A stretch of 14,566 bases of DNA, from NCBI RefSeq assembly GCF_025370715.1, contig NZ_JAMXEY010000002.1, one strand, 5' to 3'. Shown one piece after another: positions 1-13,507 of the stretch (position 1 is its first letter; each line of letters begins with the position of its first letter). Below the pieces are notes generated by a model that did no database searches, was not told the DNA's origin, and saw only the letters and a list, made by a program, of their open reading frames with translations. Source of the DNA: Laspinema olomoucense D3d (GTDB taxonomy: Bacteria; Cyanobacteriota; Cyanobacteriia; Cyanobacteriales; Laspinemataceae). The position numbers and the translations under genes were made by a program.

Positions 1-1881
1 TTAAACCTAATTGCAGGGCTGGATCAACCCACCCGAGGGGGCATTATCTTGGAAGGTCGCCAGGTCACGGAACCGGGACCCGATCGCATGGTGGTCTTTC
101 AAAACTATTCTCTCCTGCCCTGGCTCACCGTGCGGGAAAACATCGCCCTAGCCGTGCAATCCGCTATGGGCGATCGCCCCAAAGGAGAACAACGGGGTAT
201 CATTGAACATCACATCGACCTAGTGGGCCTGCGTCATGCGGCCCATAAACGCCCCGCCCACCTGTCTGGGGGTATGAAACAACGGGTGGCGATCGCTAGG
301 GCCCTAGCCATCCGCCCCAAACTCCTCCTCCTGGATGAACCTTTTGGAGCCCTAGATGCCCTCACCCGAGGGGGACTGCAAGAACAACTGATGCATATCT
401 GTGAGGAAAGCGAAGTCACCTGTATCATGGTCACCCATGATGTCGATGAAGCCCTCCTCCTGAGCGATCGCGTGGTTCTCCTCACCAACGGGCCGGGCTC
501 CTACGTGGGACAAATTCTCGATGTTCCCATAGACCGTCCCCGCACCCATGTCTCCGCCGTCAAAGATCCCCACTACTACAGTCTGCGCAACGAGATCGTC
601 TATTTCCTCAACCAACAGCGACGGGCCAAGAAACGCCAAAGCCAACCCCAACCCCAACCCCAACTCATCCAAGTCCACGAAAACGGCTTAGAAGGCTTAG
701 AAAAAGTCAACCTCAACCTCGGCTTCATCCCCCTCACCGACTGTGCCCCCCTCGTGGTGGCGAAAGAACTAGGGTTCTTCCAAAAACATGGCCTAACCCA
801 AGTTAACCTCAGTCGCGAACCCAGTTGGGGCGCGATCGAGTCGGGCATTCGAGAACAACGCCTCGACGCTGCCCAAATGACCGCCGGAATGCCCCTGGGC
901 ATGACCCTCGGTCGTCAAGACCATTCCCCCCTACCCGTGGTCACGGGTATGACCCTCTCGCGCAACGGCAACGCCATCACCTTCCATCGTCACTTCTACG
1001 ACGAGGGCATCCGGACCCTCGCCGACCTCAAAGGCTTCATCGCTGGCGATTCCGACCGACGAATCACCCTCGGGGTCGTGCATCCGACCTCCATGCACAA
1101 CCTGATCCTACGCTACTGGCTGGCCTCGGCGGACATCGACCCCGATCGCGATGTGGACCTAGTGATGATCCCCCCCGCGCAAATGATCCCCAACCTCAAA
1201 GCGGGTAACATCGATGGCTACTGTGTCGGCGAACCCTGGAACTCCCGCGCCGTCCACGAAGGCATCGGCTTCGTTATGGCCACCGACCCAGAAATCTGGC
1301 CCGGTCATTGCGAAAAAGTCCTGGGAGTGCGGGAAGACTGGGCTAAAGCCCACCCCAACACCCATCTCGCCCTGATCCAGGCCCTTCTCGAAGCCTGCGA
1401 ATACTGTGACGATATGCGTCATCGGGAGGAAGTTTTAGACCTCATCTGTCGTCCCAAGTACATCGGATCCGATCCCATCTACACCCGTCCGGGCTTCATC
1501 GACGCCTATAACAAAGGCATTGGTAAACCCGAACCCATTGCCCGTTATCACCAATTCTTCTTCGACAAAACCAACTGTCCCGATCGCACCGAAGCCCTCT
1601 GGATTCTCACCCAAATGGCCCGATGGGGCATTACCCCCTTCCCCCGCAACTGGATTGAGGTCCTTGATCGCGTTCGTCGCCTAGACCTCTTCTCCCAAGC
1701 CGCCCAGGGGTTAAATATGATGGACCTAGGCCGCGATCGCCACCCCGTCATTCTCTTCGACGGGGCCATCTTCAACCCCGACGATCCCATCCACTACCTA
1801 GAACAACTTCAAATCAAAACCAACCTAACCATCAAAGAAATCGATCTCAACCTAGCTTCCCTAGAAAGGTCCGCCGCCTAA
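1..1881 (+). CDS. nrtC: Nitrate/bicarbonate ABC transporter ATP-binding protein with a C-terminal NrtA-like solute-binding domain (NrtC/CmpC type). It is 5'-truncated by the window edge: frame 1 is open from nt 1, and the track's 'M' at 49 is a TTG inside the ORF.
   Basis: The translation shows the ABC signature LSGGMKQRVAIARAL, a Walker B LLLLDEPFGALD, and the H-loop VTHD. After a QPQPQPQ linker comes a ~400-aa domain with periplasmic-binding-protein character (LGFIPLTDCAPLVVA...), as in NrtA. The ATPase part parallels the downstream NrtD-like ORF (EPGPDRMVVFQNY in both). A fused ATPase plus NrtA-like domain is known only for NrtC/CmpC. nrtC versus cmpC cannot be decided from the sequence. 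Confidence 0.85.
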   Translation, partial: LNLIAGLDQPTRGGIILEGRQVTEPGPDRMVVFQNYSLLPWLTVRENIALAVQSAMGDRPKGEQRGIIEHHIDLVGLRHAAHKRPAHLSGGMKQRVAIARALAIRPKLLLLDEPFGALDALTRGGLQEQLMHICEESEVTCIMVTHDVDEALLLSDRVVLLTNGPGSYVGQILDVPIDRPRTHVSAVKDPHYYSLRNEIVYFLNQQRRAKKRQSQPQPQPQLIQVHENGLEGLEKVNLNLGFIPLTDCAPLVVAKELGFFQKHGLTQVNLSREPSWGAIESGIREQRLDAAQMTAGMPLGMTLGRQDHSPLPVVTGMTLSRNGNAITFHRHFYDEGIRTLADLKGFIAGDSDRRITLGVVHPTSMHNLILRYWLASADIDPDRDVDLVMIPPAQMIPNLKAGNIDGYCVGEPWNSRAVHEGIGFVMATDPEIWPGHCEKVLGVREDWAKAHPNTHLALIQALLEACEYCDDMRHREEVLDLICRPKYIGSDPIYTRPGFIDAYNKGIGKPEPIARYHQFFFDKTNCPDRTEALWILTQMARWGITPFPRNWIEVLDRVRRLDLFSQAAQGLNMMDLGRDRHPVILFDGAIFNPDDPIHYLEQLQIKTNLTIKEIDLNLASLERSAA

Positions 1882-1921
1882 CCCCGAAGCGATGCATTCC
1901 GGCAAGCGTTGCGCTCAGGCT

Positions 1922-1975
1922 ATTGCCTATTGCCTTCTCTTGCCTCTTGCCTTTTGCCTTTTGCCTTTTGCCTTC
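1922..1975. repeat. Degenerate heptamer tandem repeat with a (TTTTGCC)n core, ~7 units, in the nrtC-nrtD spacer
   Basis: TGCC recurs at 1925, 1932, 1942, 1949, 1956, 1963 and 1970, a period of 7 with one 10-nt unit. Three perfect TTTTGCC units lie at 1953-1973. This is STRR-like. Confidence 0.7.
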
Positions 1976-1985
1976 CCTTTAACCC

Positions 1986-2816
1986 ATGCAAACCTTAACA
2001 ACCTCCAGCGGCCATCCCCACAGCACCAATGACTCCTACCTCGTCATTGACGGTCTCAGTAAAACCTATGCCACCCCAGAAGGTCCCTATCCCGTTCTCG
2101 ATAACATCCAACTCACCATCCGCGAAGGAGAATTTATTTGCCTGATTGGTCACTCCGGCTGTGGCAAATCGACCCTCCTAGATATGGTGTCCGGTTTCCG
2201 TCAACCCAGTGAAGGAGTAGTGCTCCTCGAAGGACAACGGATTGAGGAACCCGGTCCCGATCGCATGGTGGTCTTCCAAAACTACGCCCTCCTCCCCTGG
2301 CTAAGCGCCTACGATAATATCTTGCTGGCCGTCAACTCCGTCTTTCCCAAACTCAAACAACGGGAGAAATCGGCGATCGTGCGAGAACATCTGGAACTCG
2401 TCGGATTGAGTGACGCTGCCGACAAAAAACCCAAAGAACTCTCCGGAGGCATGAAACAACGAGTCTCCATCGCCCGCGCCCTGGCCGTGCGCCCCAAAGT
2501 TCTCATTCTCGACGAACCCTTCGGTGCCCTCGATCCCATCACCCGGGAAGAACTCCAAGAAGAACTCTTAAGAATCTGGGCCGATCACAAAGTCACCATC
2601 CTGATGATTACCCATGATATCGACGAAGCCCTCTTCCTGGGCGATCGCCTCGTCATGATGACCAACGGCCCCGCCGCCCGCATTGGTGAAATCCTAGACT
2701 TACCCTTCCCCCGGCCCCGCGATCGCGCCCGACTCACGAAACAGGTGGAATACTACGACTTACGCAACGAAGCCCTCGACTTCCTCTATGGTCGTTACGC
2801 CCATGACGACACTTAA
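1986..2816 (+). CDS. nrtD: Nitrate/bicarbonate ABC transporter ATP-binding protein (NrtD/CmpD type)
   Basis: The translation shows Walker A GHSGCGKST, the signature LSGGMKQRVSIARAL, Walker B VLILDEPFGALD and the H-loop ITHD. The gene is 276 aa and lies 104 nt downstream of the nrtC-like gene on the same strand. No Shine-Dalgarno is visible (the upstream stretch is pyrimidine-rich), which is common in cyanobacteria. Confidence 0.85.
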   Translation: MQTLTTSSGHPHSTNDSYLVIDGLSKTYATPEGPYPVLDNIQLTIREGEFICLIGHSGCGKSTLLDMVSGFRQPSEGVVLLEGQRIEEPGPDRMVVFQNYALLPWLSAYDNILLAVNSVFPKLKQREKSAIVREHLELVGLSDAADKKPKELSGGMKQRVSIARALAVRPKVLILDEPFGALDPITREELQEELLRIWADHKVTILMITHDIDEALFLGDRLVMMTNGPAARIGEILDLPFPRPRDRARLTKQVEYYDLRNEALDFLYGRYAHDDT

Positions 2817-2952: not shown

Positions 2953-3237
2953 TTGCTCTCTTGTGATGGCGGACGCCATGACACTTATCCCTGAGCGGAT
3001 TAAGTACCTGTTGTTTGGGGACTGGCGCGATCGCCTCTTTAAGGATCGCGTTACTTGGAGTAATACCAAATCCGGTTTTTAAAAGTCGGTTTTCTCTTCA
3101 GCCCGCCCGCGCTTCTCGGGCTACCCTTCACCGAAGCCGCTAGCGCGTCTACGTCTGTGTAGCCTCCGGGCTTGACGCTGCAGGTTTTTATAGACCTATC
3201 ACAACCGGATTCCGTATAAAGGCCAGTAAGGCGGAAA

Positions 3238-3278
3238 CGACTGAAGTCGTTACTACGAACAATCTTACCAATCCTCCC
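3238..3278. repeat. Right terminal inverted repeat of the MITE-like element
   Basis: It is the reverse complement of 2912-2952. Confidence 0.7.
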
Positions 3279-3318
3279 CATCTCCCCCATCAACTAAGGA
3301 CAAAGGACCAATGACCAA

Positions 3319-4416
3319 CTACCTAGGCGATCGCCGAGGGGGAAAAAAATCAGGAAGGTCCAATCCGGGCCAACTTTGAGGCGGTATCTCGGGTTGAGGT
3401 GTGGGGGTTGGAGGTTTGGCAACCCGATATTGAGGGGGGGGAGTCGGGACTACCCGGGTTTGAGGAAGAGAAACCTGCGGTTCATTGGAAAATCCAGTAG
3501 CGATTAAGGTCATTCTCATCTCTCCATGCAGGCGATCGTCAATCACTGCACCGAAAATAATATTCGCATCCGGATCCACTACGTTATAGACTTCTGCTGC
3601 TGCTACATTCACTTCATGTAAGGTGAGATCCATGCCGCAGGTAATATTAAAAACAACCCCTTTGGCCCCGTTAATTGAACACTCTAAAAAGGGCGAAGAC
3701 ATCGCCGAAATCGCAGCTTGTCTAGCGCGAGATTGTCCTTGACCAATTCCTATCCCCAGTAAAGCGGTTCCGGCGCGACTCATCACCGATCGCACGTCGG
3801 CAAAATCCACATTCACTACCCCGGGAATCACAATTAAATCAGAAATCCCTTGTACCCCTTGGCGCAAGATATCATCCGCCACGCCAAAGGCATCCTGAAC
3901 CGGCATATTGTCAGAAATCACGGACAACAATTTCTCATTAGGAACGGCGATCGCCGTATCCAAGCGAGTCTGTAATGCCGTAATCGCTTCCTCGGCAAGA
4001 TGACTGCGCCGTTTCCCCTCGAAGGCAAAGGGACGAGTCAAGACTCCAATCGTGAGTGCCCCTTGTTGTTTGGCAATTTCCGCGACAATGGGTGTGGCCC
4101 CTGTGCCGGTTCCGCCTCCCATCCCTGCGGTAATAAAGACTAAATCACTCCCTTCCATCGCTGCGGCAATTTGACTTCTGGCATCTTCCGCCGCTTTTTG
4201 TCCGATGAGGGGATTTCCCCCAGTTCCTAACCCCTGGGTGAGTTTCTGCCCGATTTGAATGCGGCGATCGGCACGGCATTGGGCTAAAGCTCTAGCATCG
4301 GTGTTAATCCCTACAAATTCAACCCCAGACAGATCACTGGCAATCATCCGGTTGATGGCATTGCACCCGCCACCCCCGACGCCGATCACGGTAATTTTAA
4401 TGAGACTATCGAGCAC
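3319..4416 (-). CDS. ftsZ: Cell division GTPase FtsZ, apparently GTG-initiated at 4416 with an AGGAG Shine-Dalgarno 9 nt upstream
   Basis: The translation shows the tubulin/FtsZ signature GGGTGTG ([15 protein letters not shown]), the GTP-binding N-terminus [17 protein letters not shown], a Pro-rich linker, and the conserved C-terminal peptide LDLPDFF. On the minus strand ACTCAGGAGTAACGAGATC precedes the GTG. An in-frame stop lies 6 codons upstream, so there is no long N-terminal extension. Confidence 0.95.
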
Positions 4417-4479
4417 GATCTCGTTACTCCTGAGTTAATTCTGATTCCAGAGGGGCTGCGAATGCATCTCCATCTTTTT

Positions 4480-6999
4480 TTACCTCACGATAATAACCCA
4501 CATCCCCAAAGCTAGTCCGAGGGTGGCTAAATGTTGGGGAAGCAGCGATCGCAGGGACTCTCGGCCAATTTTTTGCGTTAACAGAATGCTCAACCCCACT
4601 CCAGCAATTAAGGTGGTTCCTTGCAAAAAGGTAATCACTGCTGGATGTGCAATCCACACGGGCAACCCTTCCCCACTCAACCCAAAGGTGGCAAAGGTGA
4701 CGGGTAAAATGCGTCCCGCTTCTCCTAATCCCAAGCGCAAATAATGAGCTAAACTTCCCCCTAAAACTAAGGGCAAATATCCGTATGCTAATTGGACAAA
4801 GGGTTTAGATTTGAAGGTGCGGTTTAGTCCAACAATGGCCACCCCGGCAAGTAATACCCAGGCGGCAGGAATCCCTAATGCGGCCAATGACAATCCCAAA
4901 TGCGGCCAAAATTGGCTTAAATCAATGCCTAATCCCAGGACTGTATTAATTTCGGGCAATCGATGCAAAAATATTCCCCCTAAAAGTAACAGCAACAAGG
5001 CGACTTCATAGCTACGAGGCTGATGAGTGGTCCACAAATCAATTCCCGGAGGTCGTAGATTGAATTCAACGGACCGATGGGGACAGGCTTTTAAACAGGT
5101 CATGCATAAAACACAATCCCGGTTATCTTCTAACTGGGCGGGATGAGAATAGAGCGGACAGCCATTGGTTTCCATCCCTTCCCCTTTTTGCGGACCGCCT
5201 TTATAACATTGATAGGTGGTGCATTCGGCGGAACAGGTTCCTTGTTGTGCTCTTAATTCGGTCATGGAAAGTTTGGCAAACAGTCCATTCATGCCGCCAA
5301 TGGGACAGAGGTAGCGACACCAAAACCGCCGTTCAAAGATGGCGGAACAAATCATCGCCCCGGCAGTGATTAAGAGGAGTAACCAGGCGGAGAGATAGGC
5401 CGTATTCTGTAAATTCCAGAGTTCTTCCCACAGGAAAATTAGGGTAAATAAGCCGAACAGAAACCAGCCGCCCCATTTTTCGGCTTGCTGTCGCGGCCAG
5501 GGTTTGAGGTTATGTTTTAATAATTTTTCGGAGATTTTTTGGGTAATTTCTCCATAAATCATAAAGGGACAAACGGCACACCACAAGCGACCGACAAAGG
5601 GAAAGGCGAATAGAATTAACGGCCACCACCAGGCCCAAAAGAAGTTGAGGGCAAAGTTGCGATCGCGAGTTTGCGGACCCAGAAATAAGATGGCAACGAC
5701 TAGGGCGAAGGCAACGACGGTAAAACCATAGTTAATGCGATCGGGCCACCAAGGACTGCGAAGAAAATGGCGCAATTGGGGATAAGCATTCAGTAAATTC
5801 AAGCGGAATCGTTTTTTCTTCCCTTGGGCTGCCCAAAAAATTTCTTCCGTTAATTCTCGGGCGCAATCTGACTGGACGATCGCCCGTTCTACTAAGTTTT
5901 GCAATTCCCGAATATTGCCGGGAAAATCATAAGATTGTAGCCGACGGAGAGCTTCTGGGGTGAGTTGGGGTTTGCTCAGCGCTTTGGCGCGACAGTACAA
6001 GCTAATATAATACTCGACTTGAGCGCTAATGTCGGCTTTTCGGACTCGCAGGGGAGGAACTTTGAGGGTTTGGTCCAGATGCGGGGCGATCGCTGGAAGA
6101 TGTTTTTCTGAGATGGCTAGAATTTTGGCAGGGGTGGATTTAGGGGCTGCGGGATCATCCCCTTCTCGGGTGACGGGTCTATAAGTGGCGGTTTTGCATA
6201 GGGTGGCGACTGCCTCAACCAGTTCCTCGGGCAGTTCATCAATGTTGTTGAGAATCAGGGTCCCTTCTCCCAACCATTCGATCAGTCCTGGTTTCCCTCC
6301 CGCCCGTCCAAAGAGTTCTGCCCCCCCTTTTTGGAGAATCCCACAGTTGATTTTGACGATCGGTTGCTGACGGTGGGGGGAACCATAGTGAATCAGGGCA
6401 GCAATATTATCTTTTTCTAATCCCGGTTCCCCGAAAATATAGACCGATCGCCTATCCGACCCCGCCTCTCTAATCTGCTGTCTGAGACGTTGAGCATAGC
6501 GACTTCTGCCCACAATTCCCCGTTTTGCTTTGGTGACAAAATAAGGCCGTAAAGCATCTTGTCGTTGTTGTTCATAAGTCAGCGCACTCGACACCTCGGC
6601 AAGTTCTTGGGCGAGTTGTCGGGTCAAGGTTTGGGTGATTTCTGGGTATTGCCGGACTAATTCCCGAACTCGGTCCGCTGGGACAAACCAGAATTTAGAT
6701 TCGGTGACGGTAGAAATCGTCTGTTCTGGAGGTTGGTCTAAGAGTAATGCCCGTAAGTTAATCGTGCAACCGGGGCTCAATTCATCCGAGGAAGGCGGGG
6801 CATTTTTCAGGGAAGTTTGTAACTCTCCTTCCCGGAGGATGTAGAATCCGGTGGGGAATTTCTCCGGTTCGGCGATCGCCTGATTTGCAGGTAAAATTTG
6901 CTCCTGGAGGACTTGGGCGATCGCTGTTAATACAGGTTCCGATAAACGATTTAATGCCGTTCGTTCCTGCAACCAAGCTACTGGATTGATCTCTGCCAT
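4480..6999 (-). CDS. 839-aa multidomain membrane protein. The N-terminal region is cNMP-binding/CAP-effector-like (aa ~30-125). The central domain is of sigma-54-activator (NtrC-type AAA+) type, with degenerate ATPase and sigma-54-contact motifs (aa ~160-375). The C-terminal half is polytopic membrane, with NapH/MauN/FixG-like Cys clusters (aa ~420-839).
   Basis: The ORF is a single open reading frame with the Shine-Dalgarno AGGAAA 5 nt before the ATG at 6999. The central domain aligns block by block with the NtrC central domain: IVGRS, GEPGLEKD (in place of GESGTGKE), ELFGRAGGKPGL (in place of ELFGHEKGAFTGA), GTLILNNIDELP (in place of GTLFLDEIGEMP), PPLRVRKADI, and YDFPGNIRELQNLVERAIV (versus YDWPGNVRELENAIERAVV). 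The C-terminus has at least 6 hydrophobic helices plus the motifs CAVCP, FWCRYLCPIGG, CSAECTTYQC and CVLCMTCLKACP. Confidence 0.85.
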   Translation of the reverse strand: MAEINPVAWLQERTALNRLSEPVLTAIAQVLQEQILPANQAIAEPEKFPTGFYILREGELQTSLKNAPPSSDELSPGCTINLRALLLDQPPEQTISTVTESKFWFVPADRVRELVRQYPEITQTLTRQLAQELAEVSSALTYEQQRQDALRPYFVTKAKRGIVGRSRYAQRLRQQIREAGSDRRSVYIFGEPGLEKDNIAALIHYGSPHRQQPIVKINCGILQKGGAELFGRAGGKPGLIEWLGEGTLILNNIDELPEELVEAVATLCKTATYRPVTREGDDPAAPKSTPAKILAISEKHLPAIAPHLDQTLKVPPLRVRKADISAQVEYYISLYCRAKALSKPQLTPEALRRLQSYDFPGNIRELQNLVERAIVQSDCARELTEEIFWAAQGKKKRFRLNLLNAYPQLRHFLRSPWWPDRINYGFTVVAFALVVAILFLGPQTRDRNFALNFFWAWWWPLILFAFPFVGRLWCAVCPFMIYGEITQKISEKLLKHNLKPWPRQQAEKWGGWFLFGLFTLIFLWEELWNLQNTAYLSAWLLLLITAGAMICSAIFERRFWCRYLCPIGGMNGLFAKLSMTELRAQQGTCSAECTTYQCYKGGPQKGEGMETNGCPLYSHPAQLEDNRDCVLCMTCLKACPHRSVEFNLRPPGIDLWTTHQPRSYEVALLLLLLGGIFLHRLPEINTVLGLGIDLSQFWPHLGLSLAALGIPAAWVLLAGVAIVGLNRTFKSKPFVQLAYGYLPLVLGGSLAHYLRLGLGEAGRILPVTFATFGLSGEGLPVWIAHPAVITFLQGTTLIAGVGLSILLTQKIGRESLRSLLPQHLATLGLALGMWVIIVR

Positions 7000-7485
7000 A
7001 ACTTTTCCTGTTTATGCACCCTTTTTTTAGATTATTTATCTCCCTCATTCCTGCTAGTTTTATCTCTCTTGCTGAAAAAAATCTCAATTTGGATTAAATA
7101 ATCCTTCATAAATTGGGGTTTTTCAGAGTAGAGTATTCTGAAACAGGAATTACCTCTTTTGCCTCCATCTTACCAGGGCAGCCTTACAGCCTTACATCCC
7201 AGGAATGGTTACCGGCTTTCTTGACAAAATTTGTAGCCCTCACCACCAAGGAAAGGGCCATAATCTGGGTAACTGTCTCCGACTAAATCCCATTGTCAAA
7301 GACCTGCTTGATGTTGACAGCCGTAGCTGGGGCAGGCTTTGTCAGCAAACCCCAGACTCTTGATGGGGCAGATTTAGCCGACCCAGGTAAACCAGATTCC
7401 GTCTTTTTGAGGGAATAGGGGAGTCGCATCCTCGGGGGATTTTCCGACCCAGGCCAGACCGTGATTTCTAGTCTAAATCATTGGG

Positions 7486-7510
7486 GTCGTTTTGAGTCGC
7501 AAACTGACTC
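7486..7510 (-). terminator. Perfect 9-bp-stem palindrome (TTTTGAGTC-gcaaact-GACTCAAAA) ~60 nt downstream of the HAD gene stop. It is a possible terminator or protein-binding site.
   Basis: The inverted repeat is seen directly. The stem is flanked by A/T runs but lacks a clean poly-U tail, so function as a terminator is uncertain. Confidence 0.3.
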
Positions 7511-7567
7511 AAAATTTGACCTTGAAAAAGTATCCTCGAATCCTCGGGATAATCGAGGTCTGCTAGA

Positions 7568-8206
7568 TTACTGTAAGCGGGCGATCGCCTCAATCAAGTC
7601 TTGGGGGTTATTAATCGCTATATCAGGGTTATGTTTAGATAAAACCGTTTTAGAATTAAATCCCCAACTCACCGCGATTACTTTAATTTTAGCTTTCTTA
7701 GCCGCCTCTATATCTCGGGTTTCATCTCCAATATAAATTACATTTTCCGGGGGAATTCCTTCTTTTTTCAAAAAGTTTTTAATGACTTTGTTTTTCCCAA
7801 ACAAGGTGGAACCCGCATGAATAAAGCTGAAAAGTTTAGTCATTTCATTTCTTTCTAAAAATCCTTTAACATTTTCCAGAGAGTTAGAAGTTACAATGCC
7901 CAGCTTATATTCTTTATGGTTTAAAATTTGCAAGGCTTCTACAATACCGGGAATAGGTTTTAAGTTTTGAATCTCATGATTTAATTCTAGCTTAACCATC
8001 TGCAATAAAAAAGGAACTTTAAAAATAGGAATACCCGAGGTTTTAATAATTTGCATTGAATTCATATTCCTCAAATACTCCACATCTTCTTGAGTTGTTT
8101 TTTTATATCCAAACTCTCCAGCCAAGCGATTGGTAATTTTTACAATAGAATCTAGGGTATCCGCAATTGTCCCATCAAAATCAAACAAAATTATTCTCAC
8201 CGTCAT
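7568..8206 (-). CDS. HAD-superfamily hydrolase, subfamily IA (phosphatase / beta-phosphoglucomutase-like)
   Basis: The translation shows motif I ILFDFDGTIADT (DxDGT), motif II GIVTSN, and motif III/IV K...IYIGDETRDIEAA. The Shine-Dalgarno GAGGAAG lies 5 nt before the ATG at 8206. The gene is ~30-35% GC against ~50-58% in flanking genes. Confidence 0.85.
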   Translation of the reverse strand: MTVRIILFDFDGTIADTLDSIVKITNRLAGEFGYKKTTQEDVEYLRNMNSMQIIKTSGIPIFKVPFLLQMVKLELNHEIQNLKPIPGIVEALQILNHKEYKLGIVTSNSLENVKGFLERNEMTKLFSFIHAGSTLFGKNKVIKNFLKKEGIPPENVIYIGDETRDIEAAKKAKIKVIAVSWGFNSKTVLSKHNPDIAINNPQDLIEAIARLQ

Positions 8207-8259: not shown

Positions 8260-8740
8260 GACCCTCCCCTCGGGCAACAGTTGGGCGACTGAAGAGATAA
8301 AAAAGTCAAGATTAAGAAATTTTCACCTTTTAAGTCGCCCCTCCTCGAATCACCAAGATTCAACCCCCGTCTATCCAATTCCGAAACATTCCCCACCCCG
8401 ACTCAATAAAATTATCAGGAGTCGTATCGCAACCGGCATGGAACACCAGCGGGTTTTCTCCCTTGCTTTTAATTTTACGTTAGATAATGTCCCCACCTAG
8501 CCATCGGGGAAACTTGTCCAAAAATCAACCTGGAGACAGACGCCGATCTAGACTTCAGGAGTTAAATCCCGTTACCTCTGCCCTCCGTAACTCAATTGGG
8601 GGTGAGCCCTGCCGCCCAAAACCTGAGTTAGTCCCCTGTGTAAATTTCAGACATTGGGGCTTTTCTTCAGAACCCTTGCCATTTTAAAAATTTTGTACAT
8701 AATAGGGAAAAGCGTTGTCATTTCTTTTAAAAAATTGCTG

Positions 8741-9109
8741 ATGAAACCTAAGCACGTTTTAGCGGGAATTCTTTCTACTGCCGCTGTTGCCACAGGAATT
8801 TTAATCACCTCCGAGGCCCAGGCATCAGGCTGTCCCTTTGCGAAAGGACTAAATCAATCCACTCAAAACCTATCCAATGCTACAGGATTTCATAACGGAA
8901 CGACGAAAGCTGCTTTTCTAGGCGGTGCAGTATTGGCAGCCGGTGCTAGTATTTTGGCAATCCGTCGTCTGGCAGGCGATCGCAGTCCCGAACATCCAGA
9001 ATTTTCCTCAACGGATGAGTTGATTCCCTCATCAGAAGTGTTCCCCACGGAAGTCACCGAACCCCAGGCATCGGTTGTGGAAGAAAAAGAGCTAACTTTA
9101 GTGCGCTAA
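8741..9109 (+). CDS. Small secreted/membrane-anchored hypothetical protein of 122 aa. The start is probably the internal ATG at 8741; the track ORF begins at 8654.
   Basis: MKPKHVLAGILSTAAVATGILITSEAQA|SG is a classic Sec signal peptide with an AxA cleavage site. A second hydrophobic stretch, AAFLGGAVLAAGASILAIRR, precedes an acidic Ser/Pro/Glu-rich tail. No family was recognised. Confidence 0.5.
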   Translation: MKPKHVLAGILSTAAVATGILITSEAQASGCPFAKGLNQSTQNLSNATGFHNGTTKAAFLGGAVLAAGASILAIRRLAGDRSPEHPEFSSTDELIPSSEVFPTEVTEPQASVVEEKELTLVR

Positions 9110-9545: not shown

Positions 9546-10994
9546 ATGCAGATTTCGGTCAGTCGGTTTATTGCTATAGGTTTCTGTGGGCTGTTAGCGC
9601 TATTTACAGGCGGCTGTATTACGAAGGTTGACCCCAACCAGCCAGGAATTGATGCGGGAATTCCTGATGGTAAACCGCCCAACTCTGCACAAGCGGCATC
9701 CCCTCAAGAAATTGTGCAATCCAACGTGGTGCGATCGCTTCCCGGTGGATTAGATCAAGTCCCCATGTTTAATAGTAACAGCCCCGAATGGGTCAAAGTT
9801 GAAGGCATTTTACTCTCCACCTTTCCCCCAGAAGGCAAACAAGTCCCCGCTGCCCATCTTAACTTTGTCTTTAACGATAAATTTGAGCTATTTGCTCATC
9901 ACTTTACCCATACTCCCCCCAATTTACAAACCCTCTATATCGGGATTATAGTTAACAATCCAGGCCCGGAACCTGTTACGGTAACTGTACCGGAAGGTGC
10001 TAGTTATTTACTAGAACCCGATGCTCCCTTTCAAGAGAAACCCGCCATGAGTGATAATCCTAATGGGGAGATTTATTCAGGTCCAGGAATTCGTGCCGTT
10101 GATAACGTATTGCGGGGAATTAGACAAGGGGATTTACCAGAAACCTTAGTTATTCCCCCGGGAGAAAGTCGGATGTTGATGAATCATCCGATTCCAGTCA
10201 AAGGCTTAGAAAAACCGATTAATGGTCGTTCTACTTTTCTGCGCTTACAGAGTGATGGGCCGGTATATTTAGCATCCTTAGCACTATATGCTAAAACGGA
10301 TTCTAAGGGAACTGAACGCGCACCTAATCTTGAAGAATGGCAGCAACTTTTAACTAGGGGAAATCTAGCTTTACCCCGAGATAAAACCCCTAGTCCACCG
10401 GAACAAGTCAGCGGTCAACTGATTTATAGCCGGGTTGCAGGAGTTCAGGAAGGGTCAAAATGGCAGGCTAATTTAGTGGATGAAGGAAGTGAGTATTTAG
10501 CGCTTCCTGAACCGGAAAAAGCCGTTTCTTATGTAATTAGTACCTTACGCGCTGGGACATTAGGAACAGGTCAAATTCAAGCGGCCAAGCTGTTAGTTCG
10601 ATATCCAGATACGGCTTATGAATCCCATGCGAACTATGGGGTGCATTATGATTTAACCCTCCCCCTACGAAACGAGAGCGATCGCCCGCAAAAAGTGGCA
10701 GTTACCTTAGAAACCCCGATGAAAGAAGAACGGTTATCTAAAGGTGGATTAATCTTTCGTCAACCCCCGTGGGATTATCCCTTTTTCCGCTCAACGGTCC
10801 GCTTGCGATACACCGATGATAATGGAGAAAACATTACCCGTTATCTACATTTATGGCATCGTCGGGGACAGATTCTTGACCCATTAGTAACCTTAAATTT
10901 AGCCCCCAATGAGGTGCGATCGGTCCAGGTTGATTTCCTTTATCCTCCGGATTCCGTCCCGCCTCAAGTCTTGACAGTTAAGACGTTAGAATAA
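9546..10994 (+). CDS. Conserved hypothetical exported protein or lipoprotein of 482 aa
   Basis: The N-terminus MQISVSRFIAIGFCGLLALFTGGC is a signal peptide ending in a lipobox-like LFTGGC. The ORF is long and clean with HIP1 sites inside it. No catalytic motif was recognised. Confidence 0.75.
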   Translation: MQISVSRFIAIGFCGLLALFTGGCITKVDPNQPGIDAGIPDGKPPNSAQAASPQEIVQSNVVRSLPGGLDQVPMFNSNSPEWVKVEGILLSTFPPEGKQVPAAHLNFVFNDKFELFAHHFTHTPPNLQTLYIGIIVNNPGPEPVTVTVPEGASYLLEPDAPFQEKPAMSDNPNGEIYSGPGIRAVDNVLRGIRQGDLPETLVIPPGESRMLMNHPIPVKGLEKPINGRSTFLRLQSDGPVYLASLALYAKTDSKGTERAPNLEEWQQLLTRGNLALPRDKTPSPPEQVSGQLIYSRVAGVQEGSKWQANLVDEGSEYLALPEPEKAVSYVISTLRAGTLGTGQIQAAKLLVRYPDTAYESHANYGVHYDLTLPLRNESDRPQKVAVTLETPMKEERLSKGGLIFRQPPWDYPFFRSTVRLRYTDDNGENITRYLHLWHRRGQILDPLVTLNLAPNEVRSVQVDFLYPPDSVPPQVLTVKTLE

Positions 10995-11016: not shown

Positions 11017-11574
11017 TTAAAGTAGGGATTTGAGTGCTAAGGTAAACCCCGGGACAATATTTTCACCATTTAAGATTGCGGTTGCGGGATATGGGGTAAT
11101 GGAACCGTCAGCGCGATAAACGAACCCCTGTTGATTTTGGCGATCGATTAACCATCCCAACTGCACCCCATTTTCAATATATTCTTGCATTTTATCCTTA
11201 AGTTTTTCTAGCCCGTCAGTTTTGGAGCGAATTTCTATGACAAAATCGGGAGGGAGATTTAAAAATTCATCGGTTCCCTGATCCCATCCTTCGGGTAAAC
11301 GTCCTTTTGCCACAAACGCAGCATCAGGCGATCGCACTGCACCATTGGCTAATTTAAACCCACAACTTGAACTAAAGACTTCCCCCAAATCGTGCTGTTC
11401 TACCCAATACAAAAGATAGGCCCCTGCTTTCAGTTCTCGATTACTAGAAATTCCTCCAGTGGGTGGCATAGTCTCTAACGTTCCATCTGCATTCCGCTCA
11501 AATCTCAATTCAGGGTTTTGTGAACTGATTTGCATCAGTTCTTCATCGGTTAAGGTATAAAACTTTTGGACCAT
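11017..11574 (-). CDS. Uma2-family (DUF820) PD-(D/E)xK putative endonuclease. The start is probably the ATG at 11574 (MVQKFYTLTDEEL) with a GAGGT Shine-Dalgarno 8 nt upstream; the track ORF starts at 11598.
   Basis: The protein is ~185 aa with the characteristic Uma2 organisation. PDFVIEIRS carries the PD...E.K-like core and a C-terminal GF motif is present. The family is highly expanded in cyanobacteria. Confidence 0.8.
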   Translation of the reverse strand: MVQKFYTLTDEELMQISSQNPELRFERNADGTLETMPPTGGISSNRELKAGAYLLYWVEQHDLGEVFSSSCGFKLANGAVRSPDAAFVAKGRLPEGWDQGTDEFLNLPPDFVIEIRSKTDGLEKLKDKMQEYIENGVQLGWLIDRQNQQGFVYRADGSITPYPATAILNGENIVPGFTLALKSLL

Positions 11575-11696
11575 TATTTTACCTCGAAACACTCCCATTC
11601 AATGGGATATTCTTTAATTTAATATAACAATTTTTACCCCCTATTTTACTGCGGTATGGAAGAAACGACGGCAGTTGTGACTATGAGCAATAAAAA

Positions 11697-11770: not shown

Positions 11771-13507
11771 TTATAAAGAAACCACAACTCCAGGGCTTTC
11801 ATTTGCCATGCGGTCTACGCTACAAACGGCATAACTTCCCGGTTGTAATCCGGTGAGGGAATTGGTGGCGGAATTCAGAACTTTGACCAGTTGCCATTCA
11901 TTCCCGTTGCGACGATAAACGCTCCAGTAGCGAACATCATTATTACCAGAATCCCAGGCGATCGCATTCTCACTGGCACGAACACCTGTGGGAACTGCCG
12001 GTGGAACTGCATCTAACCAAGGCATAGTAGGAGGCAGTGCCTGGGAAGGATAGACTGCTGCTCTAAAACGCTCGTTGATTCCTAACCAATTTTCCTTAAA
12101 CACTTTCATGCTAAAGAAAATATTACCCAGGGACAGTTGATCCACCGCTTGGCGAGAAATTTCCACCTGTCTTTCAAACTCAGAAATTGGCCACCCACTG
12201 CCATCAAGTTTGCTCAGATAGTTTCCGGCATAAATATGACGGCGCAGGGGATTATTTTGACTCCACCAGTTTAATAACACGGGATAGCTTTGTTGAGGGG
12301 GGTCAATCCGCCAATAGAGTTGAGGAGCCAGATAATCTAGCCACCCTTCATCTAGCCATTTTTTAACGTCGGCATAGAGTCCATCAAATTGGTCAAATCC
12401 GACAATTCCCTCAGCTTTGCCCGGACGATAAATTCCAAAGGGGCTAATTCCAAATTTAACGTAGGGTTTTTCGGTTTTGATCCCGTTCCAAATCCGTTCG
12501 ATCGCATCATTGACGTTTTTTCTGCGCCAATCTGCCAGAGAAAGCGTTCCGCCACTGTTTTGATAGGCGCCATAAGTGGCGGTATCGGGGAAGCGCACCC
12601 CTTCTTGTGGATAGGGGTAGAAATAGTCATCAATATGAATGCCATCGATATCATAGCGACGGACCACATCCATAATCACGTTATAAGCCCGGTCTTGGAC
12701 TTCTTTTGCCCCGGGGTCCATCCAGAGTAAATCCCCATATTGATAGGCATATTGGGGAAACATGGAGGCCATGTGATTAGGAGTCAGGCCATATTTTTCT
12801 CCTGGCATTTTAGCGCGGTAAGGATTAAACCAAGCATGAAGCTCGATATTGCGCTTGTGACTTTCAGCGATCGCAAACTCCAGGGGGTCATAAAAAGGTT
12901 GGGGCGCTTGTCCCTGAGTTCCCGTTAGCCATCCACTCCAAGGCTCAATTTGCGACGCATAGAAGGCATCTCCATTGGGCCGAATTTGGAGTACCAGGGC
13001 ATTCAAATTTAATGATTGTATCTGGTCCAGGATTTCCAGCAGTTCCGCTTTTTGCTCGTCTACGGACAAATTGCTCGCGGAGGGCCAGTCAATGTTGGCC
13101 ACCGAGGCCACCCAGACCCCTCTAAATTCGTGCTGATGGCCGACACTGACGAGCTTTTGAACCCGATCATCGCCTTGGAGTGGAAATTGGAGTTGTGTCA
13201 TTTCAGGGGATCTGCGCTCACCTCCCGGGTTGTTGATGGGTGCAGGGACTGCAGTGGGGGGAGCAACCGCAGGCGGCATCACTGGGCGGGGATACTGCGC
13301 GGTCCCCGGTGGAACGTTGAGCAATAACAAGAGTAAACAACCCCAGACTGCAAACTGGATTTTGAGTGGATTTCCCGTGAAAAAAGTACGCACGATGCGC
13401 TGACATAGGGACCACAGGTTTGTTGATAACTGACCTGTGGCACCCATGCGGCGCTTCGGTTGTCTTTGCTGGAAAATTCGGAATACTAAGCGCATCAATT
13501 TCATCAT
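11771..13507 (-). CDS. Glycoside-hydrolase-like family 10 (GHL10 / YngK-YddW-like, DUF187) secreted protein. The start codon is uncertain; alternatives are ATG 13507 or ATG 13447.
   Basis: The hydrophobic segment IQFAVWGCLLLLLLNVPPGTAQ forms a signal peptide. It is followed by a Pro/Ala-rich linker and then EFRGVWVASVANIDWP...NLNALVLQIRPNGDAFY...HAWFNPY, which is typical of the GHL10 TIM-barrel family. The C-terminus has a beta-rich tail. Codon usage is normal and HIP1 sites are present. Confidence 0.8.
   Translation of the reverse strand: MMKLMRLVFRIFQQRQPKRRMGATGQLSTNLWSLCQRIVRTFFTGNPLKIQFAVWGCLLLLLLNVPPGTAQYPRPVMPPAVAPPTAVPAPINNPGGERRSPEMTQLQFPLQGDDRVQKLVSVGHQHEFRGVWVASVANIDWPSASNLSVDEQKAELLEILDQIQSLNLNALVLQIRPNGDAFYASQIEPWSGWLTGTQGQAPQPFYDPLEFAIAESHKRNIELHAWFNPYRAKMPGEKYGLTPNHMASMFPQYAYQYGDLLWMDPGAKEVQDRAYNVIMDVVRRYDIDGIHIDDYFYPYPQEGVRFPDTATYGAYQNSGGTLSLADWRRKNVNDAIERIWNGIKTEKPYVKFGISPFGIYRPGKAEGIVGFDQFDGLYADVKKWLDEGWLDYLAPQLYWRIDPPQQSYPVLLNWWSQNNPLRRHIYAGNYLSKLDGSGWPISEFERQVEISRQAVDQLSLGNIFFSMKVFKENWLGINERFRAAVYPSQALPPTMPWLDAVPPAVPTGVRASENAIAWDSGNNDVRYWSVYRRNGNEWQLVKVLNSATNSLTGLQPGSYAVCSVDRMANESPGVVVSL

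Follow-up and report, generated by a model that had tools for sequence, protein, structure and literature searches.

Why does an ftsZ gene stand without ftsQ beside it? In cyanobacteria, ftsQ adjoining ftsZ is the usual arrangement (PMC7714070). In a stretch of 14,566 nucleotides (nt) from Laspinema olomoucense D3d (contig NZ_JAMXEY010000002.1 of assembly GCF_025370715.1; the whole stretch is called the window here), an ftsZ gene lies 63 nt downstream of a co-oriented gene for an 839-amino-acid (aa) membrane protein. An initial annotation of the window had taken it for the division ftsZ of the cell, displaced from ftsQ into the transcription unit of a sensor protein. The analysis described here shows that it is a separate, divergent paralog and not the main division gene. 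The paralog is referred to as FtsZp. The evidence is best accommodated if FtsZp is a functional accessory FtsZ that arose by duplication, acquired a remodelled interface and is probably expressed behind the 839-aa gene. A probability of roughly 0.55 is given to this joint reading.

An intact ftsQ-ftsZ pair in the same genomes

The FtsZp gene occupies positions 3319..4416 on the minus strand and encodes 365 aa from a GTG start, with the Pfam domains Tubulin and FtsZ_C. Oscillatoria acuminata PCC 6304 has a complete chromosome sequence (CP003607, 7.69 Mb) with two ftsZ genes. One product, AFY82610 (365 aa), adjoins the 839-aa AFY82609; the other, AFY81336, has 427 aa. The same two forms are found in L. 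olomoucense, where WP_261199940 (366 aa) is 99% identical to the window protein and the canonical FtsZ P0145 (428 aa) is 68% identical to it. Both copies are likewise present in L. palackyanum, Laspinema sp. D2d, Oscillatoria sp. HE19RPO, Phormidium pseudopriestleyi FRX01 and Phormidium sp. CCY1219 (canonical FtsZ P0338). The initial annotation had proposed a search for ftsQ elsewhere in the genome, and such a gene is found: both L. olomoucense (L001) and O. acuminata (L088) have the long FtsZ copy directly behind a 297-298-aa POTRA_1 gene, ftsQ. The ftsQ-ftsZ pair is thus intact elsewhere in these genomes, and the ftsZ of the window is a second copy.

The reading of the window gene as the division ftsZ, devoid of an ftsQ neighbour and an N-terminal extension and placed in a unit with a redox or cyclic-nucleotide (cNMP) sensor, starts from sound observations. 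The gene encodes a genuine FtsZ and no ftsQ is present in the window; Pfam scans gave no POTRA or FtsQ domain in any window open reading frame (ORF) of 150 aa or more, so the position upstream of ftsZ was correctly described as free of an ftsQ-like gene. The ftsQ-linked FtsZ of 427-428 aa, found both in this species and in the complete O. acuminata PCC 6304 genome, contradicts this reading, as does the core identity of the window gene to canonical FtsZs, ~73% against ~90% among the canonical proteins themselves. It is almost certainly wrong. Ordinary ftsQ-ftsZ synteny in relatives, with the 839-aa gene unlinked, had been named among the outcomes that would speak against it. The synteny is observed, in relatives and in the same genome; the unlinking is not, as the 839-aa gene is still linked to FtsZp in every carrier.

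FtsZp as a member of the FtsZ family

FtsZp matched PF00091 with 154.9 bits and PF12327 with 113.2 bits, and its score against the TIGR00065 ftsZ model (407.2 bits) was above the curated cut-off of 295.2. Bacillus subtilis FtsZ (2vam) was matched with E = 1.6e-110, and solved FtsZ structures in general at ~1e-110. The motif GMGGGTGTG and the T7-loop motif VNVDFAD are invariant in 9/9 paralogs, which places the nucleotide-binding signature GGGTG[ST]G and the catalytic NxDxxD in all of them. The reading frame is intact at every locus. Like the canonical cyanobacterial proteins (AFY81336, Anabaena FtsZ), FtsZp has a proline-rich linker and a C-terminal peptide of the type GLD[IL]P.F...RR.PR, close to the canonical PGLDIPDFLQKRRPPR.

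FtsZp differs from these proteins in the absence of an upstream ftsQ, in its ~73% core identity, in 27 replaced positions and at its N-terminus. A variable N-terminal peptide of 20-80 aa is present in 96 of 97 cyanobacterial FtsZs (Corrales-Guerrero et al., PMC6175996); it is missing in all the paralogs. Thus three properties of a canonical division FtsZ are not found in FtsZp: adjacency to ftsQ, the N-terminal peptide, and grouping with the single-copy cyanobacterial FtsZs at ~84-95% core identity.

Origin and selection

A neighbour-joining tree was built with 200 bootstraps from 9 paralogs, 23 canonical cyanobacterial FtsZs and 2 Melainabacteria sequences. The paralogs were monophyletic in 200/200 bootstraps and stood on a long branch. 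Core identities were computed over 305 alignment columns. Canonical proteins shared on average 0.897 of the core among themselves (minimum 0.843), and paralogs shared 0.73 with canonical proteins (maximum 0.774). The Melainabacteria sequences were 0.672 identical to the canonical proteins and 0.595 to the paralogs. For O. acuminata and Phormidium sp. CCY1219, the canonical copies were 0.951 identical and the paralogs 0.813; by core identities the overall rate of FtsZp is ~fourfold higher than that of the canonical copy. The two paralog subclades are only ~76-81% identical to each other. For every paralog, the nearest canonical sequence is that of the Laspinema-family type. The simplest reading of these comparisons is that a resident ftsZ was duplicated before the lineages of Laspinema and Phormidium CCY1219 diverged, and that accelerated change probably followed.

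Within the Laspinema clade, the pairwise ratio of nonsynonymous to synonymous substitution rates (dN/dS) of FtsZp was 0.024-0.072 at dS 0.20-0.74. The value was 0.034 for canonical ftsZ and 0.087-0.137 for the 839-aa gene, and FtsZp is better conserved within Laspinema than this adjoining gene. These ratios indicate that purifying selection now acts on FtsZp as strongly as on the canonical gene and that FtsZp is not decaying. A redundant duplicate drifting toward loss could account for the higher overall rate and for the restricted taxonomic range among the matches listed in the searches described below. The dN/dS of 0.02-0.07 over dS up to 0.74, the intact frames and the invariant catalytic motifs make such drift very improbable.

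An origin of FtsZp from a mobile element or by recent transfer was considered and rejected. No integrase or tRNA gene is nearby, and the GC content at third codon positions (GC3) of FtsZp (0.478) is like that of canonical ftsZ (0.494) and of neighbours such as the 839-aa gene (0.486).

Replaced residues, probably at the longitudinal interface

The core of FtsZp carries a distinct set of changes. Twenty-seven of the 247 columns that are invariant or nearly so in canonical proteins are replaced in all nine paralogs. The Melainabacteria keep the canonical residue at 19-20/27 of these columns; therefore the changes are derived in the paralog. Positions are given in E. coli numbering, assigned through an E. 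coli sequence whose residues V208, L169 and F268 match allele names in PMC3961180. The replacements include W/F40 to V, Q47 to R/K in the T2 loop, A70 to T in the T3 loop and E83 to D. Further along, L205 is replaced by V just before T7, a cluster of changes lies in H8/S7 (215, 218, 219, 222, 225, 231, 233, 238), and I244 is replaced by M, L248 by F and G/A266 by C, the last two residues before the F268 position. In FtsZ filaments, the T2 and T3 loops line the nucleotide-bearing top face of the subunit, whereas the opposite, bottom face, made up of T7, H8 and S9, is inserted into the adjoining subunit. The replacements would therefore be concentrated on both sides of the longitudinal interface.

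Alleles at two of these positions are known from E. coli. A70T (ftsZ1/ftsZ100) presumably confers SulA resistance together with reduced GTPase activity. By name, FtsZ1(A70T), it is the classical ftsZ1 allele (PMC12661307). Q47K in E. coli complements an ftsZ null only when suppressors are present (PMC5405962).

Distribution and gene order of FtsZp

A homology search of 5.8 billion protein clusters seeded with the window protein gave a sharp break in identity. Two Laspinema clusters (366-371 aa) were 96-99% identical, and the next, P0123 (379 aa), was 70% identical. Thousands of ordinary cyanobacterial FtsZs of ~420-430 aa followed at 64-70%, and in this search cyanobacterial FtsZs are the nearest relatives of FtsZp. 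A second search seeded with P0123 yielded no further paralog clusters among the matches listed, and over both searches only three 90% clusters of the FtsZp clade appear among the matches listed. In a GTDB-based collection, at least six species-level genomes carry FtsZp at 94-98% identity; the other matches listed are non-cyanobacterial FtsZs. A metagenome scan for the T3-loop motif of the paralog gave no further cyanobacterial paralogs. Among the matches listed, the clade is thus restricted to the Laspinema/O. acuminata group and Phormidium sp. CCY1219. Its divergent members are P0123 (Logan run SRR17165156, L083) and the Phormidium sp. CCY1219 protein (L084); both show the same gene order, with 213 nt between the 839-aa gene and FtsZp.

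The 839-aa gene (4480..6999, minus strand) lies immediately upstream of FtsZp at all nine loci and wherever a locus is long enough to show it. The order in the carriers is HAD hydrolase, 839-aa gene, FtsZp and a convergent DUF928 gene, and this is the ancestral arrangement. Upstream of the 839-aa gene, both paralog-bearing lineages have kept the HAD-family hydrolase gene (7568..8206, minus strand, 212 aa, Pfam HAD_2) as its neighbour, and they also share a syntenic pirin gene farther along. The DUF928 gene is directly convergent with FtsZp in other carriers (L003, L005, L006, L008, L084). An nrtABCD nitrate-transporter cluster has been inserted between the two in the window (within 1-2816, plus strand) and in L. 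olomoucense L002. In Picosynechococcus PCC 7003 and in one Nostocales genome, the 839-aa orthologs have unrelated neighbours and no ftsZ nearby.

The FtsZp start and its expression

The spacer between the 839-aa gene and FtsZp covers 4417..4479 on the minus strand (63 nt), as the initial annotation had placed it. The junction reads TAA CTC AGG AGT AAC GAG ATC GTG on the minus strand. The GTG lies at 4416-4414, an AGGAG Shine-Dalgarno sequence at 4431-4427 is 10 nt before it, and an in-frame TAA at 4437-4435 stands six codons before it. Because of this stop, a long N-terminal extension of FtsZp is impossible, which bears out the start proposed earlier. The GTG and AGGAG are kept at 9/9 related loci, the distant Phormidium CCY1219 lineage included, and the start call is therefore supported. 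An in-frame stop is found 6-9 codons 5' of the conserved GTG at all loci. In GenBank and RefSeq, the starts are annotated variously, giving products of 364, 365, 366, 370 and 371 aa, one variant beginning with MLDS; the 365-aa form fits the conserved GTG with AGGAG 10 nt before it. The spacer also holds a mini-ORF of 12 codons in the FtsZp frame (ATG GAG ATG CAT TCG CAG CCC CTC TGG AAT CAG AAT TAA). It is probably non-coding, because an indel in L004 and L005 disrupts it.

Across the Laspinema-clade loci, the spacer of 62-63 nt is 75-100% identical. For the 300 nt before the 839-aa gene the identity is 38-71%, and for the third codon positions of FtsZp it is 70-83%. Consensus scans of 3000-7700 gave no terminator-like or promoter-like site at the junction, with totals at or below the expectation from shuffled sequence. 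Folding of the spacer and junction RNA was no better than that of shuffles (z = -0.73), and no Rfam match was obtained there. With a conserved spacer that is free of terminator-like sites, transcripts of the 839-aa gene could plausibly read through into FtsZp, which would rely on its own translation initiation. The possible co-transcription suggested earlier from the short same-strand gap thus appears plausible, the more so as the gap is conserved above the neighbouring intergenic DNA. Upstream of the 839-aa gene lies an AT-rich intergenic region of 568 nt (7000..7567, minus strand). No consensus promoter was found in it and it is poorly conserved among relatives; it would be the likely site of a promoter driving the 839-aa gene and FtsZp.

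FtsZp could also be a condition-specific alternative or back-up FtsZ under its own regulation, serving rapid reductive divisions, trichome fragmentation or stress, with its position behind the 839-aa gene being accidental. With synteny extending over the whole region in the carrier lineages, the adjacency need not be selected. The gap widens to 213 nt in CCY1219, FtsZp has a conserved Shine-Dalgarno sequence and GTG of its own, and it keeps the C-terminal peptide needed for membrane tethers. However, the Laspinema spacer is short, free of terminator-like or promoter-like sites and conserved above nearby intergenic DNA, and the loss of the N-terminal peptide together with the changes at Q47 and A70 argues against a simple replacement of canonical FtsZ. 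A back-up role deserves some weight but is unlikely.

The 839-aa protein

The 839-aa protein contains a cNMP_binding domain (aa 36-118), Sigma54_activat and AAA_lid_14 (aa 162-378) and two stretches of Fer4_5. It is ~70% identical across cyanobacterial orders, and by this conservation its gene is a pan-cyanobacterial core gene whose product is predicted to be a polytopic membrane iron-sulfur protein. With the enhancer-binding proteins it shares the AAA+ core of the sigma-54-activator type and the lid. It differs from them in a degenerate Walker A (FGEPGLEKDN) and in a Walker B replaced by LNN (LILNN), both of which are invariant across cyanobacteria (alignment A1). ELFGRAGGKPG stands in place of the GAFTGA region, and neither a GAFTGA loop nor a helix-turn-helix (HTH) domain is present. 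Sigma-54 is not known from cyanobacteria.

The membrane domain is extremely conserved and includes a Cys-rich stretch; CAVCP, CRYLCP and CVLCMTCLKACP are invariant in the same alignment. As in the NapH/MauN polyferredoxins, two CxxCP motifs and the 4Fe-4S ferredoxin motif CxxCxxCxxxCP lie in a polytopic domain; unlike them, the protein scores far below the family cut-off, with 53.5 bits against 213 for napH TIGR02163. No NCBIfam model cut-off was reached, the best equivalog being NorR with 94 bits against 476. The degenerate Walker motifs, the lack of GAFTGA and HTH and the scores below cut-off show that the protein is no sigma-54 activator and no substitute for FtsQ. FtsQ/DivIB proteins have a single transmembrane helix and ~250-300 aa; the present protein is polytopic, 839 aa long and without POTRA, so that the lack of FtsQ hallmarks reported for it is confirmed. 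The protein has the appearance of a conserved pseudo-ATPase joined to a polyferredoxin of NapH type. The redox and cNMP sensor labels fare less well: the cNMP-binding-like and iron-sulfur domains are present, but with a degenerate AAA+ and no family cut-off reached, the labels are weaker than implied.

Some longer relatives of ~1115-1121 aa (P0005, P0006, P0008; for example in Trichocoleus desertorum) carry a second AAA+ in tandem with an intact Walker A, GEAGVGK. Synechocystis slr0593 ('cAMP binding membrane protein') is a putative ortholog; among the papers searched, it is mentioned in one expression table only. A literature search returned no paper on the 839-aa family and no described function for it.

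The constant adjacency raises the question of whether FtsZp acts outside division, as a separate cytoskeletal or membrane-remodelling filament in a two-gene module with the 839-aa iron-sulfur protein. The adjacency holds at 9/9 loci over two subclades ~76-81% identical, the spacer is conserved, and many surface and interface residues are replaced. FtsZ-like proteins without a division role occur in other bacteria (PMC2875224). But the 839-aa gene is ~70% identical in essentially all cyanobacteria, where no ftsZ adjoins it, so its function needs no FtsZp; moreover, FtsZp keeps a divisome-type C-terminal peptide, and any interaction with the 839-aa protein is putative. We regard a role outside division as quite unlikely. 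In a more specific and still more doubtful form, the two proteins would make up a module in which a redox- or nucleotide-responsive membrane protein controls or anchors a second FtsZ cytoskeleton in gliding filamentous cyanobacteria. If true, such a module would parallel the two-FtsZ system of chloroplasts in free-living cells and add a physiological input.

Other features of the window

Beyond the HAD gene, the window contains a 151-aa ORF without a Pfam family (8654-9109, plus strand), a DUF3370 protein gene (9546-10994, plus strand), a gene for a Uma2-family endonuclease-like protein (11017-11598, minus strand) and one for a GHL10 glycosyl-hydrolase-like protein (11771-13507, minus strand). 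Laspinema relatives keep these four in the same order, and none of them has a connection with cell division. The HAD gene has a GC content of 0.338 and a GC3 of 0.324, against ~0.49-0.55 for its neighbours, despite its conserved position. At the other end, the nrtC-like ORF (49-1881) is truncated by the left end of the window; its L002 counterpart has 677 aa. Scanned over its full length for Rfam families and tRNA genes, the window gave no match.

Discussion

The preferred reading of FtsZp as an accessory FtsZ can be put as a sequence of steps. A resident ftsZ would have been duplicated in the common ancestor of the carrier lineages and then neofunctionalised. The product would be a polymerising GTPase with a longitudinal interface remodelled at the nucleotide face (T2, T3) and at the bottom face around T7, H8 and S9. 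It most likely acts as an accessory subunit, co-assembling with the canonical Z-ring or working beside it and altering assembly dynamics or partner binding. It would not be a stand-alone division FtsZ and would be analogous to the second chloroplast FtsZ. Its expression in Laspinema probably comes from transcripts that run on from the 839-aa gene over the conserved 63-nt spacer, with translation starting at a Shine-Dalgarno sequence and GTG of its own.

Among experimental systems, an Anabaena FtsZ lacking residues 2-51 (delta-N-FtsZ) comes closest to what FtsZp may do. This construct polymerises, has normal GTPase activity and interacts with full-length FtsZ (PMC6175996). It does not bind SepF, is poorly incorporated into the Z-ring and cannot be the sole FtsZ (PMC6175996). 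Both proteins are without the N-terminal peptide; the core of the construct is canonical, whereas that of FtsZp is also remodelled.

Chloroplasts offer a second comparison. The FtsZ2/FtsZ1 pair of the green lineage and the FtsZA/FtsZB pair of red algae resemble the present case in that a duplicated FtsZ of cyanobacterial type is kept beside a structural copy. The core region of the second chloroplast FtsZ raises Z-ring turnover (PMC12343686; PMC9975276). The origins are independent. Probable green-algal FtsZ1 genes on marine and lake metagenome contigs (L094, L110, L168 and similar ones), whose products have N-termini resembling transit peptides and lack the C-terminal core motif, share GLGTGGNP, T222, L225 and Q231 with FtsZp. 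The overlap amounts to 5-6/26 positions with the selected position excluded, in algal sequences that were picked for the threonine and are hence biased. Convergence of FtsZp with FtsZ1 would thus be modest, a lead and not evidence of mechanism.

The Hyphomicrobiales duplicates (for example, Agrobacterium FtsZ1) are, like FtsZp, lineage-restricted extra FtsZ GTPases under selection. They are proposed to tune division and not to drive it (bioRxiv 10.1101/2025.09.29.679267). They are usually truncated after the GTPase domain; in FtsZp, the C-terminus is full and the N-terminus shortened, and the phylum and genomic context differ.

Several points weigh against an accessory role as set out here. 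Co-assembly and altered dynamics are deduced from sequence. FtsZp retains its C-terminal peptide, unlike chloroplast FtsZ1. The neighbour-joining tree left the branch point of the paralogs unplaced, all canonical sequences being monophyletic in 102/200 replicates, and an old duplication or a transfer from another cyanobacterium may be the origin instead. The whole neighbourhood is syntenic in both carrier lineages, so that inherited gene order, and not selected coupling, may explain the adjacency. The 213-nt gap of the CCY1219 lineage leaves room for an independent promoter. Other bacteria have apparently ordinary FtsZs with a T3-loop threonine as well (L089, L106, L136), so that A70T alone is no sign of altered function.

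In the literature, a single FtsZ is stated for bacteria and cyanobacteria, and rings with two FtsZs are said to arise only after endosymbiosis (PMC11285052; PMC9975276). In a survey of 131 cyanobacterial genomes, the O. acuminata PCC 6304 entry lists only the canonical WP_015147980 with the FtsQ WP_015147979, which suggests that the paralog went unnoticed. Among papers on cyanobacterial FtsZ paralogs or duplications, or on FtsZ in Laspinema or O. acuminata, no description of FtsZp was found. Accessory FtsZ paralogs are already known from Hyphomicrobiales, archaea and plastids; in cyanobacteria, they are apparently undescribed.

For annotation, the finding is a caution that 'ftsZ' in these genomes does not denote one gene. 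A culturable group, which includes O. acuminata PCC 6304 with its complete genome and several Laspinema isolates, carries a constrained second FtsZ. It would provide a free-living model for why a second FtsZ is retained and how the behaviour of the Z-ring changes.

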